Shown one piece after another: positions 1,122 through 57,632 of a stretch of 64,000 nt of DNA. The position numbers and the translations under genes are program-made. Origin of the DNA: Escherichia coli (GTDB taxonomy: Bacteria; Pseudomonadota; Gammaproteobacteria; Enterobacterales; Enterobacteriaceae); assembly GCF_003334305.1 (NCBI RefSeq), contig NZ_QOWS01000001.1. One strand, written 5' to 3'. The first letter of the stretch is position 1. The number at the start of each line of letters is the position of its first letter. Below the pieces are notes generated by a model that was not told the DNA's origin, made no database searches, and saw only the letters and a program-made list of their open reading frames with translations.

Positions 1122-1208
1122 AAAAAATAAGCCCGTGTAAGGGAGATTACACAGGCTAAGGAGGTGGTTCCTGGTACAGCTAGCATTTTATGGGTTATGT
1201 TTTTCAGC
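1122..1208 (-). ncRNA. cyaR: CyaR (RyeE) Hfq-dependent sRNA
   Basis: Reverse complement reads GCTGAAAAACATAACCCATAAAATGCTAGCTGTACCAGGAACCACCTCCTTAGCC...CACGGGCTTATTTTTT, matching the CyaR sequence including its terminator hairpin and U-tail. Confidence 0.8.
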
Positions 1209-1292
1209 GAAACGGATGATAACCTTAATAAATGCAGCTGTATGTGATCGGTTTCTAAGAATTTTCCATCCGGGAAAAATAATCGAAATTAA

Positions 1293-31153: not shown

Positions 31154-31192
31154 CAGTGTATTGGTAGCTAAAAAGCCAGGGGCGGTAGCGTG
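31154..31192 (+). promoter_or_regulatory. JUMPstart element with ops site (GGCGGTAGCGTG) in the wza 5' leader; RfaH-dependent antitermination signal
   Basis: CAGTGTATTGGTAGCTAAAAAGCCAGGGGCGGTAGCGTG seen at 31154-31192, about 180 bp upstream of wza. Confidence 0.75.
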
Positions 31193-45718: not shown

Positions 45719-45807
45719 ATGAATGCCGAACCGCGATGTAAATAACGACAAAAACAAAATTGGCCGCTTCGGTCAGGGCCAACTATTGCCTGAAAAAGGG
45801 TAACGAC

Positions 45808-52794: not shown

Positions 52795-54189
52795 ATGCCA
52801 TTTAAAAAACTCTCCCGACGCACCTTCCTGACGGCAAGCTCCGCGCTTGCCTTCCTCCATACCCCTTTCGCTCGCGCACTTCCCGCCCGACAAAGCGTTA
52901 ACATTAACGACTACAACCCACACGACTGGATCGCCTCATTTAAACAAGCCTTCGGTGAAGGGCAAACGGTCGTCGTGCCTGCCGGATTGGTTTGCGACAA
53001 TATCAACACCGGCATCTTCATTCCTCCTGGCAAAACGTTACACATCCTTGGAAGCCTGCGCGGCAACGGCAGAGGGCGATTTGTCTTACAGGACGGTAGC
53101 CAGGTGACAGGGGAGGAGGGCGGCAGTATGCATAACATCACCCTGGATGTGCGTGGCTCTGACTGCACCATCAAAGGGCTGGCGATGAGCGGCTTTGGCC
53201 CGGTAACGCAGATTTATATCGGCGGCAAAAACAAACGGGTCATGCGCAACCTGACCATCGATAACCTCACTGTCAGCCACGCTAATTACGCCATCTTACG
53301 CCAGGGATTTCATAACCAGATAATCGGTGCCAACATCACCAATTGTAAGTTCAGCGACTTACAGGGCGATGCCATTGAATGGAACGTGGCGATTAACGAC
53401 CGTGATATTTTGATCTCCGACCATGTCATCGAGCGCATCAACTGTACTAACGGAAAAATCAATTGGGGCATTGGCATAGGCCTTGCGGGGAGTACTTATG
53501 ATAATAATTACCCGGAAGATCAGGCAGTGAAAAACTTTGTCGTGGCGAATATCACGGGATCGGATTGTCGGCAGTTGATCCATGTTGAAAATGGTAAACA
53601 TTTTGTTATTCGTAATATCAAAGCCCGCAATATCACGCCGGATTTCAGTAAGAAAGCAGGTATTGATAACGCCACAGTCGCTATTTACGGTTGTGACAAT
53701 TTCGTGATTGATAATATTGAAATGATTAATAGCGCCGGGATGTTAATCGGCTATGGGGTAATTAAAGGCAAATATCTCTCGATACCGCAAAATTTCCGAG
53801 TGAATAATATTCAACTGGATAATACCCACCTTGCTTACAAATTGCGCGGTATCCAAATCTCCGCCGGGAATGCTGTCTCCTTTGTGGCGCTGACTAACAT
53901 TGAGATGAAGCGTGCGTCGCTTGAGCTACACAATAAACCGCAACACCTTTTTATGCGAAATATCAAGGTGATGCAGGAATCCTCTGTTGGACCAGCATTG
54001 AGCATGAACTTCGACATGCGCAAAGACGTTCGCGGCGTTTTTATGGCAAAGCGTGAAACGCTGCTTTCACTCACGAATATTCATGCCGTGAATGAAAAAG
54101 GGCAAAGCTCCGTCGATATCGACAGGATTAATCACCATATTGTTAATGTGGAAAAGATTAACTTTAGATTGCCGGAACGGAGGGAGTAG
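52795..54189 (+). CDS. wcaM: Colanic acid biosynthesis protein WcaM (secreted, beta-helix-like)
   Basis: 464 aa; Tat/Sec-like N-terminus ([13 protein letters not shown]). Confidence 0.9.
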
Positions 54190-54346
54190 ATTTGCGACCA
54201 TTCATAAACTTACTGGATATAATGTTCTAAAAGATTATAATCCTTACGCTAACTGTTAAAGCTGGGGCTGGGCAGCATTGACTACTCAGGGAAGGTACTC
54301 ATCTTTATCTTGTGTTTCTTACGTAACAACCAGACTAAAGTGATTT

Positions 54347-55342
54347 ATGAACGATAACGTTTTGCTCATAGGAGCTTCCGGATTCGTAGGAACCCGACTA
54401 CTTGAAACGGCAATTGCTGACTTTAATATCAAGAACCTGGACAAACAGCAGAGCCATTTTTATCCAGAAATTACACAGATTGGCGATGTTCGCGATCAAC
54501 AGGCACTCGACCAGGCGTTAGCTGGTTTTGACACTGTTGTACTGCTGGCAGCGGAACATCGCGATGATGTCAGCCCTACTTCTCTCTATTATGATGTCAA
54601 TGTTCAGGGTACCCGCAACGTGCTGGCAGCCATGGAAAAAAATGGCGTTAAAAATATCATCTTTACCAGTTCCGTTGCTGTTTATGGTTTGAACAAACAC
54701 AATCCTGACGAAAACCATCCACACGATCCTTTCAACCACTACGGCAAAAGTAAGTGGCAGGCAGAGGAAGTGCTGCGTGAATGGTATAACAAAGCACCAA
54801 CAGAACGTTCATTAACTATCATCCGTCCTACCGTTATCTTCGGTGAACGCAACCGCGGTAACGTCTATAACTTGCTGAAACAGATCGCTGGCGGCAAGTT
54901 TATGATGGTGGGTGCAGGAACTAACTATAAGTCCATGGCTTATGTTGGAAACATTGTTGAGTTTATCAAGTACAAACTGAAGAATGTTGCCGCAGGTTAT
55001 GAGGTTTATAACTACGTTGATAAGCCAGATCTGAACATGAACCAGTTGGTTGCGGAAGTTGAACAAAGCCTGAACAAAAAGATCCCTTCTATGCACTTGC
55101 CTTACCCACTAGGAATGCTGGGTGGATATTGCTTTGATATCCTGAGCAAAATTACGGGCAAAAAATACGCAGTCAGCTCTGTGCGCGTGAAAAAATTCTG
55201 CGCAACAACACAGTTTGACGCAACGAAAGTGCATTCTTCAGGTTTTGTGGCACCGTATACGCTGTCGCAAGGTCTGGATCGAACTCTGCAGTATGAATTC
55301 GTCCATGCCAAAAAAGACGACATAACGTTTGTTTCTGAGTAA
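54347..55342 (+). CDS. gne: NAD-dependent sugar 4-epimerase (Gne-like UDP-GlcNAc/UDP-GalNAc 4-epimerase), SDR family
   Basis: 331 aa; Rossmann motif GASGFVGTRL, catalytic YxxxK (YGKSK); located between wcaM and galF. Confidence 0.8.
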   Translation: MNDNVLLIGASGFVGTRLLETAIADFNIKNLDKQQSHFYPEITQIGDVRDQQALDQALAGFDTVVLLAAEHRDDVSPTSLYYDVNVQGTRNVLAAMEKNGVKNIIFTSSVAVYGLNKHNPDENHPHDPFNHYGKSKWQAEEVLREWYNKAPTERSLTIIRPTVIFGERNRGNVYNLLKQIAGGKFMMVGAGTNYKSMAYVGNIVEFIKYKLKNVAAGYEVYNYVDKPDLNMNQLVAEVEQSLNKKIPSMHLPYPLGMLGGYCFDILSKITGKKYAVSSVRVKKFCATTQFDATKVHSSGFVAPYTLSQGLDRTLQYEFVHAKKDDITFVSE

Positions 55343-55584
55343 TGCAGGCGAGTCAGAGAAAAAAGGACCAGGTTGGACTACGATTATTCGGAAAGAGGTA
55401 CTGATTAAATTATCAGTATGCGGAATTCCGAGTAATCCGAGTAACCCAGATGCTGATGGTGTGTAGTGTTATCGTAAGGTTTAATCAAAGTTATGCGGAA
55501 CTAAGCTTTGGTATATAGCCATAACGTTTGGCTAACCAATGGCAATAATTTACGCACTATCAGCCACTTAGAGGTAGGAAAAGA

Positions 55585-56478
55585 ATGACGAATTTAAAAG
55601 CAGTTATACCGGTAGCAGGTCTTGGGATGCATATGTTGCCTGCCACTAAGGCGATTCCCAAAGAGATGCTACCGATCGTCGACAAGCCAATGATTCAGTA
55701 CATTGTTGACGAGATTGTGGCTGCAGGGATCAAAGAAATCCTCCTGGTAACTCACGCGTCCAAGAACGCGGTCGAAAACCACTTCGACACCTCTTATGAA
55801 TTAGAATCTCTCCTTGAACAGCGCGTGAAGCGTCAACTGCTGGCGGAAGTGCAGTCGATCTGTCCACCGGGAGTGACCATTATGAACGTGCGTCAGGGCG
55901 AACCTTTAGGTTTGGGCCACTCCATTTTGTGTGCGCGACCTGCCATTGGTGACAACCCATTTGTCGTGGTACTGCCAGACGTAGTGATCGACGACGCCAG
56001 CGCCGACCCGCTGCGCTACAACCTAGCTGCCATGATTGCGCGCTTCAATGAAACGGGACGCAGCCAGGTGCTGGCAAAACGTATGCCGGGTGATCTCTCT
56101 GAATACTCCGTCATTCAGACCAAAGAACCGCTGGATCGCGAAGGTAAAGTCAGCCGCATTGTTGAATTCATCGAAAAACCGGATCAGCCACAAACGCTGG
56201 ACTCAGACATCATGGCCGTTGGTCGCTATGTGCTTTCTGCCGATATTTGGCCGGAACTTGAACGCACTCAACCTGGTGCATGGGGGCGTATTCAACTGAC
56301 TGATGCCATTGCTGAACTGGCGAAAAAACAGTCCGTTGATGCAATGCTGATGACTGGTGAAAGCTACGACTGCGGTAAAAAAATGGGCTATATGCAGGCG
56401 TTTGTGAAGTATGGCTTACGCAACCTGAAAGAAGGGGCGAAGTTCCGTAAAGGGATTGAGAAGCTGTTAAGCGAATAA
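55585..56478 (+). CDS. galF: UTP-glucose-1-phosphate uridylyltransferase regulatory paralog GalF
   Basis: 297 aa; matches GalF. Confidence 0.95.
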
Positions 56479-56736
56479 TGAAAATCTGACCGGATGTAAC
56501 GGTTGATAAGAAAATTATAACGGCAGTGAGGGTTCGTGGCGAAAGTAATTTGTTGCGAATATTCCTGCCGTTGTTTTATATAAACAATCAGAGTAACAAC
56601 GAGTTAGCAATAGGATTTTAATCAAAGTTTTCCAGGATTTTCCTTGTTTCCAGAGCTGATTGGTAAGACAATTAGCGTTTGAATTTTTCGGGTTTAGCGC
56701 GAGTGGGTAATGCTCGTCACATCGTAGGCATGCATG

Positions 56737-56775
56737 CAGTGCTCTGGTAGCTGTAAAGCCAGGGGCGGTAGCTTG
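56737..56775 (+). promoter_or_regulatory. JUMPstart element with ops-like site (GGCGGTAGCTTG) ahead of the O-antigen cluster
   Basis: CAGTGCTCTGGTAGCTGTAAAGCCAGGGGCGGTAGCTTG; near-identical to the wza JUMPstart at 31154. Confidence 0.7.
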
Positions 56776-56785
56776 GTAAAAAATC

Positions 56786-57631
56786 ATGATAAATGTAAGA
56801 AAAATAGCAAAATTAATTATTGGCGATAATTTGTATTGGAAGTTGAAGTTTTTTTATGCCACTAAAAAATGGCCTAATATTTATGATCCAACTTTTTTTA
56901 ATGAAAAAGTTCGCTGGCGAATGCTGCACGACCAAAATTATCTTTATGTTAAATGCGCTGATAAGTATGAGGTCAGGAACTATATTGAGAAAAAAATTGG
57001 CAGTGAATATTTAGTTCCGCTTCGTTATATGTTTACTAATAATGATGATATTACTGATAAATGTATTCTGAGTAATAGTGTAGCAAAGTCTAACCATGGT
57101 GCAGGTATGATAGAGTTCATTCCTGAGACGTATTCATTAAGCGAGTTGAAGAATACTTTTGGAAAATGGCTAAATCTTGACTATACCTCCGAGTCCAATG
57201 AAAAACATTATAGTAGGATTCCGAGAAAAATTCTTATTGAAGAGTCTTTGTGTAAGGAGGGAAAACCTCCTGTCGATTATAAATTTCATACATTTAAACA
57301 AGCAGATGGTTCATTTCGTTTTGTTCTTCAGTTGGTAAATGGTCGGTTTCATAATGAATCAAGAGGTTATTATCTGGAGGATCTTAATAAATGCATATGG
57401 TCTCATGGTGAAGGTTTTCATTCTATTCCACAAGAGCATATAAAACCTTTAAAAAAGGCTATGGAATTGTCATCAATTCTATGTGAAGATTTTAATTACG
57501 TACGAGTTGATTGGTATATCTATGATAATAAGCTTTATTTTGGTGAATTAACCTTTACACCTGGTGCTGGAAGTTCATATGAATTTGGTAATGAGCTTGA
57601 AAAATTAATGGCCAAATATTGGCAGTTGTAA
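56786..57631 (+). CDS. TupA-like ATP-grasp family protein (first gene of the O-antigen cluster; function unclear)
   Basis: 281 aa; N-terminal FFNEKVRW...DKYEVRNYI and C-terminal VDWYIYDNKLYFGELTFTPGAGSS patterns typical of the TupA-like ATP-grasp family; low GC. Confidence 0.6.
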   Translation: MINVRKIAKLIIGDNLYWKLKFFYATKKWPNIYDPTFFNEKVRWRMLHDQNYLYVKCADKYEVRNYIEKKIGSEYLVPLRYMFTNNDDITDKCILSNSVAKSNHGAGMIEFIPETYSLSELKNTFGKWLNLDYTSESNEKHYSRIPRKILIEESLCKEGKPPVDYKFHTFKQADGSFRFVLQLVNGRFHNESRGYYLEDLNKCIWSHGEGFHSIPQEHIKPLKKAMELSSILCEDFNYVRVDWYIYDNKLYFGELTFTPGAGSSYEFGNELEKLMAKYWQL

Positions 57632-57632
57632 A

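Follow-up and report, generated by a model that had tools for sequence, protein, structure and literature searches.

Gene between wcaM and galF

What is the function of a short-chain dehydrogenase/reductase (SDR) gene located between the colanic acid genes and galF, and does its product act on a nucleotide sugar or on a sugar that is already attached to a lipid carrier? We addressed this question in a stretch of 64,000 nucleotides from Escherichia coli (contig NZ_QOWS01000001.1, hereafter the window). The final gene of the colanic acid cluster, wcaM (52795–54189), ends at position 54189, and galF (55585–56478) starts at position 55585; both flanks were assigned from the ORFs and RefSeq. The interval between them (54190–55584, 1395 bp) is made up of a 157-bp spacer (54190–54346), a coding sequence of 331 residues plus stop (54347–55342) and a 242-bp spacer (55343–55584). 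All of these, as well as the codons, RNA element and cluster genes given below, are on the + strand. The coding sequence begins with ATG, and a longer start is impossible because of an in-frame TGA two codons 5' of this ATG. RefSeq places the CDS boundaries at the same positions on identical DNA. The ORF list thus agrees with the initial annotation, which had described a 331-residue SDR 4-epimerase gene at this site.

The initial annotation had also described this slot as empty in K-12, and this was borne out. In MG1655 the gap between wcaM and galF is 174 bp and contains no annotated feature. When the gap was compared with the window, alignment was limited to approximately 14 nt after the wcaM stop codon and approximately 8 nt before the galF ATG. 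The K-12 spacer displays no further homology, so that a simple insertion flanked by recognisable junction repeats does not describe the relation between the two alleles. The wcaM–galF interval with the SDR gene is a common polymorphism in this species, being present in 1324 of the 5426 complete E. coli genomes examined (24%), essentially always on the chromosome. In strain G6/7 the SDR gene has been lost through an IS1 insertion, with the last 236 bp before galF retained.

Concerning expression, a promoter scan identified a sigma-70-like site at 54214–54241, within the spacer following wcaM, with 10 of 12 matches, and we regard it as a candidate promoter for the gene. In the scan of 54000–56900, the counts of promoters and terminators were not above those in shuffled sequence, and no terminator was found 3' of the gene.

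Identity with the Gnu protein of O157:H7

The window protein was identical to the E. coli O157:H7 protein Z3206 in all 331 residues. The accession WP_000999466.1 and a single RefSeq product name are common to O157:H7 and strains H15, STEC005, A7 and NCTC11121, and the exact protein is present under that RefSeq name on at least 1000 contigs. At the DNA level, the 1395-bp interval was 98.1% identical to that of O157:H7 and matched that of strain H15 at 100%. The diagnostic PCR primer pairs of Cunneen et al. (2013) for this gene were also examined in silico. The gnu-internal pair matched at 54475–55138 (664 bp) with a single mismatch, located in the forward primer, and the gnu-galF pair matched at 55278–55703 (426 bp) with 0 mismatches. 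The location directly 5' of galF, outside the O-unit cluster, is the canonical location of gnu in E. coli and its relatives.

The O157 enzyme was first called gne and was later renamed Gnu, the type of clade D (Cunneen et al. 2013, PMC3682973). In the tree of 295 proteins in that study, Gnu constitutes clade D, GalE and true Gne proteins constitute clade A, and the UDP-GlcNAcA epimerases GnaB/WbpP constitute clade B (PMC3682973). According to the account of Rush et al. (2010) given there, the O157 enzyme is without activity on UDP-GlcNAc and converts the UndPP-GlcNAc made by WecA to UndPP-GalNAc (PMC3682973). In E. coli O86, a Gnu-type gene and a clade-A gne are both needed (PMC3682973), which implies that the functions of the two genes differ. 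The presence of gnu across serogroups tracks GalNAc as the first sugar (PMC3682973), and a review of E. coli O antigens associates gnu just upstream of galF with an O-unit that starts with GalNAc, whereas gne within the cluster is associated there with internal GalNAc (PMC7685785). Older work presents the same enzyme in its titles as a UDP-GlcNAc C4-epimerase or UDP-hexose epimerase (Wang et al. 2002; Guo et al.), and in view of these titles some minor in vitro activity on UDP-sugars may be possible.

Taking these points together, the gene is very probably gnu (historically gne or Z3206), encoding a GlcNAc-PP-undecaprenol 4-epimerase that serves the adjacent O46/O134-type O-unit. The lipid-linked substrate is attributed to the window enzyme from the literature on the identical protein, in which it derives from one biochemical study. 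The gene at this locus is already known, its product being identical to the type enzyme of Gnu, and the current understanding of Gnu is unchanged. That gnu is a real gene and not a chance ORF follows from the occurrence of the exact protein on at least 1000 contigs and from the detection of the identical O157:H7 protein by proteomics. In that study, Z3206 was enriched together with other O-antigen enzymes in insoluble and high-density fractions (PMC3210124), which hints at a membrane-proximal location of Gnu.

Family assignment, conserved residues and predicted fold

The window protein was then compared with family models. With TIGR01179, the NCBIfam equivalog model for GalE/Gne, it reached 71.4 bits, well short of the 262.3-bit cut-off, and the match was limited to residues 5–170. 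The positive control, K-12 GalE, scored 499.8 bits with the same model. All 20 NCBIfam matches of the window protein were below their respective cut-offs, and as NCBIfam holds no model for Gnu, the profile results exclude GalE and give no positive identification of Gnu. The Pfam family Epimerase (PF01370) was matched with an E value of 1e-30. Identity to K-12 GalE was 30% over 299 residues with 17% gaps, mainly in the Rossmann and catalytic half. The homology comparison with the Gne and GalE families, which the initial annotation had itself proposed as a check, thus places the protein in a different SDR subfamily and overturns the gne assignment.

The motifs quoted in the initial annotation are present. 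GASGFVGTRL occupies residues 9–18, and within it residues 9–15 (GASGFVG; codons at 54371–54391) form the GxxGxxG signature of an NAD-binding Rossmann fold. The YxxxK motif, YGKSK, occupies residues 132–136 (54740–54754), and its Tyr132 and Lys136 align with Tyr149 and Lys153 of GalE. Ser109 aligns with the catalytic Ser124 of GalE, next to Ser108 (codons of the pair at 54668–54673). Among 104 diverse homologs, Ser108 and Tyr132 were invariant, and Lys136, Gly9, Gly12 and Gly15 were conserved in at least 90%.

An AlphaFold2 model of the protein (pLDDT 96.7, pTM 0.93) displayed an extended-SDR fold. The nearest solved folds were those of UDP-hexose 4-epimerases and related extended SDRs (TM 0.72–0.77, approximately 20% identity), and with these as neighbours the model predicts the chemistry of a 4-epimerase for Gnu. 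The best sequence match in the PDB reached only 66.8 bits; sequence and fold searches of the PDB gave distant relatives at approximately 20% identity and no close solved structure for the Gnu clade. There was no entry named WbpP among the 60 best PDB sequence matches listed.

The Gnu-like subfamily, collected at E values up to 1e-30, comprised 365 clusters at 50% identity. The automated names of the homologs were inconsistent and included UDP-N-acetylglucosamine 4-epimerase, UDP-glucose 4-epimerase, 3-beta-HSD, dTDP-glucose dehydratase and cholesterol dehydrogenase. In some proteins, a Gnu-like domain is fused to a polyprenyl-phosphate glycosylphosphotransferase domain or to a GT4 glycosyltransferase. 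We considered such fusions as evidence for a lipid-linked substrate and rejected them as ambiguous, since the same kind of fusion is conceivable for an epimerase that acts on UDP-sugars.

Comparison with related epimerases

The O157:H7 locus harbours the same protein at the same wcaM–galF position, with the same 157-bp and 242-bp spacers and the same gene length, and differs only in the downstream O-unit cluster, which is of the O157 type there and of the O46/O134 type in the window. The Gnu proteins of Yersinia pseudotuberculosis (O3, O6, O7, O10 and others) also belong to clade D and are inferred to play the same part, in O-units that begin with GalNAc (PMC3682973). However, approximately 50% of their residues differ from those of the E. 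coli enzyme, and the gene is situated inside the O-antigen cluster and not upstream of it (PMC3682973).

The clade A Gne proteins (Gne of Y. enterocolitica O:8 and Gne2 of E. coli O86) and GalE are likewise NAD-dependent 4-epimerases of the extended-SDR type with GxxGxxG and the Ser/Tyr/Lys residues, and like Gnu they lead to the presence of GalNAc in a surface polysaccharide. Their substrate, however, is a nucleotide sugar, whereas that of Gnu is a lipid-linked sugar, and they form a clade separate from that of Gnu (PMC3682973). Their gene context also differs. The gne genes are found within O-antigen clusters, downstream of galF, whereas gnu in the window is flanked by wcaM and galF; a galE gene would be expected next to galT and galK, and in K-12 it belongs to the gal operon, but the window gene has no such neighbours. 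The GnaB/WbpP proteins of clade B, UDP-GlcNAcA 4-epimerases, are also SDR 4-epimerases and were once named Gne, but their genes invariably occur alongside a gene for the WbpO/GnaA dehydrogenase, and the polymer contains GalNAcA (PMC3682973). In the RefSeq annotation of related genomes, no gnaA/wbpO gene for a UDP-GlcNAc 6-dehydrogenase flanks gnu, and the sole dehydrogenase gene nearby is ugd, located beyond gnd.

Adjacent O46/O134-type cluster

Downstream of galF, a JUMPstart RNA element that heads the O-unit operon was detected at 56737–56775 (Rfam RF01707, 56.7 bits with a gathering score of 35), in the gap separating galF from the first O-unit gene. As the element is 3' of galF, gnu and galF are outside the operon that it leads, and transcription of gnu would be independent of that operon.

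The operon corresponds to a Wzx/Wzy cluster of the O46/O134 type (56786–62498), which presumably uses the product of Gnu and which was assigned from its ORFs, DNA identity and the RefSeq annotation of STEC005. It consists of an ATP-grasp amidoligase gene (56786–57631), an O46/O134-family wzx (57633–58934, named as in STEC005), a first GT2 glycosyltransferase gene (58936–59841), an O46/O134-family wzy (59838–60977), a gene annotated as a beta-1,6-N-acetylglucosaminyltransferase (60934–61767) and a second GT2 glycosyltransferase gene (61770–62498). The wzy gene is an intact ORF of 379 residues, identical in DNA to the gene of STEC005, which is intact according to RefSeq. In the RefSeq annotation of the identical STEC005 cluster, there is neither an initiating transferase gene nor a gne or other epimerase gene within the region corresponding to 56786–62498. 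The DNA of the cluster was 100.0% identical to those of STEC005, TUM1887 and DETEC-E601, and 99.7% identical to that of H15. H15 was considered as the source of the window on the basis of its 100% match in the wcaM–galF interval, but was rejected because its cluster falls short of the identity displayed by the other three strains.

The O46 and O134 clusters are nearly identical (PMC4732683), and judging from the title of Perepelov et al. (2015), both antigens contain D-glucuronoyl-D-allothreonine. In Table S2 of Cunneen et al. (PMC3682973), O46 is listed with one GalNAc in the main chain and no GlcNAc, with the entries 'need gnu = Y' and 'gnu present and correct'. We found gnu 5' of galF in 17 of 17 complete genomes with an O46/O134-type cluster, against the 24% background; as these genomes are interrelated, the ratio is supportive and is not to be taken as a probability. 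With the O46 composition taken from this supplementary table, GalNAc is predicted to be the first sugar of the adjacent O-unit, made by WecA and Gnu. The GalNAc-containing O-unit anticipated by the initial annotation is thus supported by the type of the adjacent cluster. Its proposal that the enzyme supplies UDP-GalNAc, or UDP-Gal, does not fit the reported properties of the identical O157 enzyme, which according to the account in PMC3682973 acts on GlcNAc-PP-undecaprenol.

Proposed pathway

We propose the following pathway for the O-unit. On the cytoplasmic side of the inner membrane, WecA, which is encoded elsewhere in the ECA cluster, would form GlcNAc-PP-undecaprenol. Gnu would then invert C4 of the lipid-linked sugar, giving GalNAc-PP-undecaprenol. 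In the active site, Tyr132, Lys136 and Ser108/Ser109 together with bound NAD+ may bring about oxidation of the C4 hydroxyl group to a 4-keto intermediate, which would be re-reduced from the opposite face; the catalytic residues and the 4-keto mechanism are proposed after the GalE paradigm. The three glycosyltransferases encoded in the cluster would assemble the O-unit on GalNAc-PP-undecaprenol as acceptor, and the amidoligase presumably forms the amide between GlcA and allothreonine. Wzx would flip the unit and Wzy would polymerise it.

The main importance of this assignment lies in correct annotation. The name gne implies a pool of UDP-GalNAc and a WecA able to use it, whereas in the accepted model epimerisation takes place after transfer to the lipid carrier. 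The distinction between gnu and gne also matters for glyco-engineering, when E. coli is used to make glycans that start with GalNAc.

Alternative roles of the gene

We considered the possibility that the gene is of the gne type and produces UDP-GalNAc to be used by WecA or a glycosyltransferase. This was the original annotation of the same gene (Wang et al. 2002), some homolog entries are still named UDP-N-acetylglucosamine 4-epimerase or UDP-glucose 4-epimerase, and the nearest solved folds are UDP-hexose 4-epimerases. The database names, however, are automated and mutually inconsistent. The reported inactivity of the identical enzyme on UDP-GlcNAc, its placement in clade D and not A, the failure to reach the TIGR01179 cut-off and the need for both types of gene in O86 all argue against this role, and we consider it very unlikely. 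A GalE-like enzyme interconverting UDP-glucose and UDP-galactose, which would provide UDP-Gal for the O-unit, would agree with the SDR epimerase fold and the catalytic residues. The resemblance to GalE is nevertheless low and mainly confined to the Rossmann and catalytic half, with a score far under the model cut-off, E. coli normally harbours galE in the gal operon, as in K-12, and gnu tracks first-sugar GalNAc across serogroups. Taking these into account, we find a GalE-like role extremely improbable.

A different question is whether an intact gnu has a current role in this strain. It could be a passenger if the adjacent cluster were silent, or if the O antigen were an O8 mannan encoded downstream. 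In favour of this, an O8-type ABC-transporter locus follows wzzB in each of eight genomes with 99.9–100% identity to the window over 54190–57631, and two of the eight have a wzy that is annotated as frameshifted. Cunneen et al. also describe gnu 'in excess of need', and in 10 serogroup cases gnu or gne was present though not predicted as needed (PMC3682973). In the window, however, wzy is intact, as is the rest of the cluster together with the JUMPstart leader, the sequence of Gnu is perfectly conserved, and gnu accompanies the cluster in all 17 genomes. We therefore regard a passenger gene as hardly credible, and retain Gnu as the enzyme that serves the adjacent O-unit.

O8-type locus in the nearest genomes

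The eight genomes are those of A7, STEC005, A28, TUM1887, DETEC-E601, strain 41, FCI51 and H15, and the region compared (54190–57631) covers gnu, galF and the first O-unit gene. In all eight, an ABC-transporter O-polysaccharide locus is situated just after gnd-ugd-wzzB and contains manC, manB, O8-family wzm and wzt, and a methyltransferase gene. The window ends inside gnd, before the wzzB region. As all eight nearest genomes carry this O8-family wzm/wzt mannan locus, we tentatively raise the possibility that the window derives from an O8-type strain. The O46/O134-type polymer might then represent a second polysaccharide resembling a K antigen (a group 4 capsule or K_LPS), and Gnu a branch-point enzyme that divides the pool of GlcNAc-PP-Und made by WecA. 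If so, synthesis of the O8 mannan and of ECA would start from GlcNAc-PP-Und, and GalNAc-PP-Und would be committed to the O46/O134-type unit, so that the level or activity of Gnu would set the balance of two co-expressed surface polysaccharides.

Two further observations were made on these and related genomes. The strains in which wzy is annotated as frameshifted are H15 and A7. In NCTC11121, which harbours the same O46/O134 cluster, wzzB is followed directly by hisIE.

Organization of the wcaM–galF interval

The wcaM–galF interval carrying gnu, the gene for a GlcNAc-PP-undecaprenol 4-epimerase, was compared with the gnu-minus interval of K-12 MG1655 (L003:4329-4502). Sequence common to both forms was confined to approximately 14 nt following the wcaM stop codon (window 54190-54203) and approximately 8 nt preceding the galF ATG (window 55577-55584). 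Apart from these shared ends, the K-12 spacer of 174 bp is unrelated to the gnu-plus form. The gnu-plus and K-12 gnu-minus forms are thus alternative cassettes, which a simple insertion or deletion does not explain. A different arrangement was found in a single genome, that of strain G6/7 (NZ_CP060061.1; L006:847-2735), where an IS1A element has replaced the whole of gnu together with the 3' end portion of wcaM. The last ~236 bp before galF are kept beside IS1A. The absence of gnu in this strain is an IS-mediated loss.

Gnu-like domains in putative fusion proteins

Among distant homologues of the Gnu protein, we found apparent fusions of a Gnu-like SDR domain with a small polyprenyl-phosphate glycosylphosphotransferase (PGT) domain or with GT4 glycosyltransferases. 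These putative fusion proteins (P0248, P0140, P0147, P0188 and P0189) are 39-48% identical, and may include gene-calling artefacts. In P0248, the PGT domain spans residues 6-202 and the SDR domain residues 291-615. The fusions suggest a functional tie of the Gnu-like SDR to lipid-linked glycan assembly. As to its substrate, they are ambiguous.

O-unit genes and a second O-polysaccharide locus

The O-unit operon of the O46/O134-type cluster opens with a gene for an ATP-grasp amidoligase (window 56786-57631). D-Glucuronoyl-D-allothreonine is named in the title of the paper on the O46/O134 structure, and this amidoligase would be the obvious candidate for forming the amide. The wzy gene of the O46/O134 family (window 59838-60977) is an intact ORF of 379 residues with a GTG start, both here and in STEC005. 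The annotation of wzy in H15 and A7, two near-identical strains, reads 'frameshifted', which could be a real inactivation or else an assembly error in their records.

All eight near-identical complete genomes (99.9-100% identity to window 54190-57631) harbour, just past gnd-ugd-wzzB, a second locus for O-polysaccharide, this one of the ABC-transporter type. Its genes include manC, rfbK/manB, wzm and wzt of the O8 family, and one for a SAM methyltransferase. The corresponding position lies beyond the 3' end of the window (L004:19926-23715 in STEC005, L005:29512-35442 in A7 and L001:27497-29395 in H15). Because this O8-type locus is present in all eight, the O46/O134-type cluster may, in the window's lineage, direct a second, K-antigen-like polymer against an O8 background. 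NCTC11121 carries the same O46/O134 cluster without an ABC-transporter-type second locus.

RNA elements elsewhere in the window

Three tandem copies of Sib RNA (Rfam RF00113, 138-150 bits) are present on the minus strand (15329-15471, 15657-15799 and 15986-16134). K-12 carries a pair here, sibA and sibB, so the window seems to contain one additional Sib/Ibs type I toxin-antitoxin repeat. Further Rfam matches were CyaR sRNA (1125-1210, minus strand), an algC RNA motif (45754-45803, plus strand) ~190 bp upstream of cpsG, and a second JUMPstart element (31154-31192, plus strand), which from its position is presumably the leader of the colanic acid operon.
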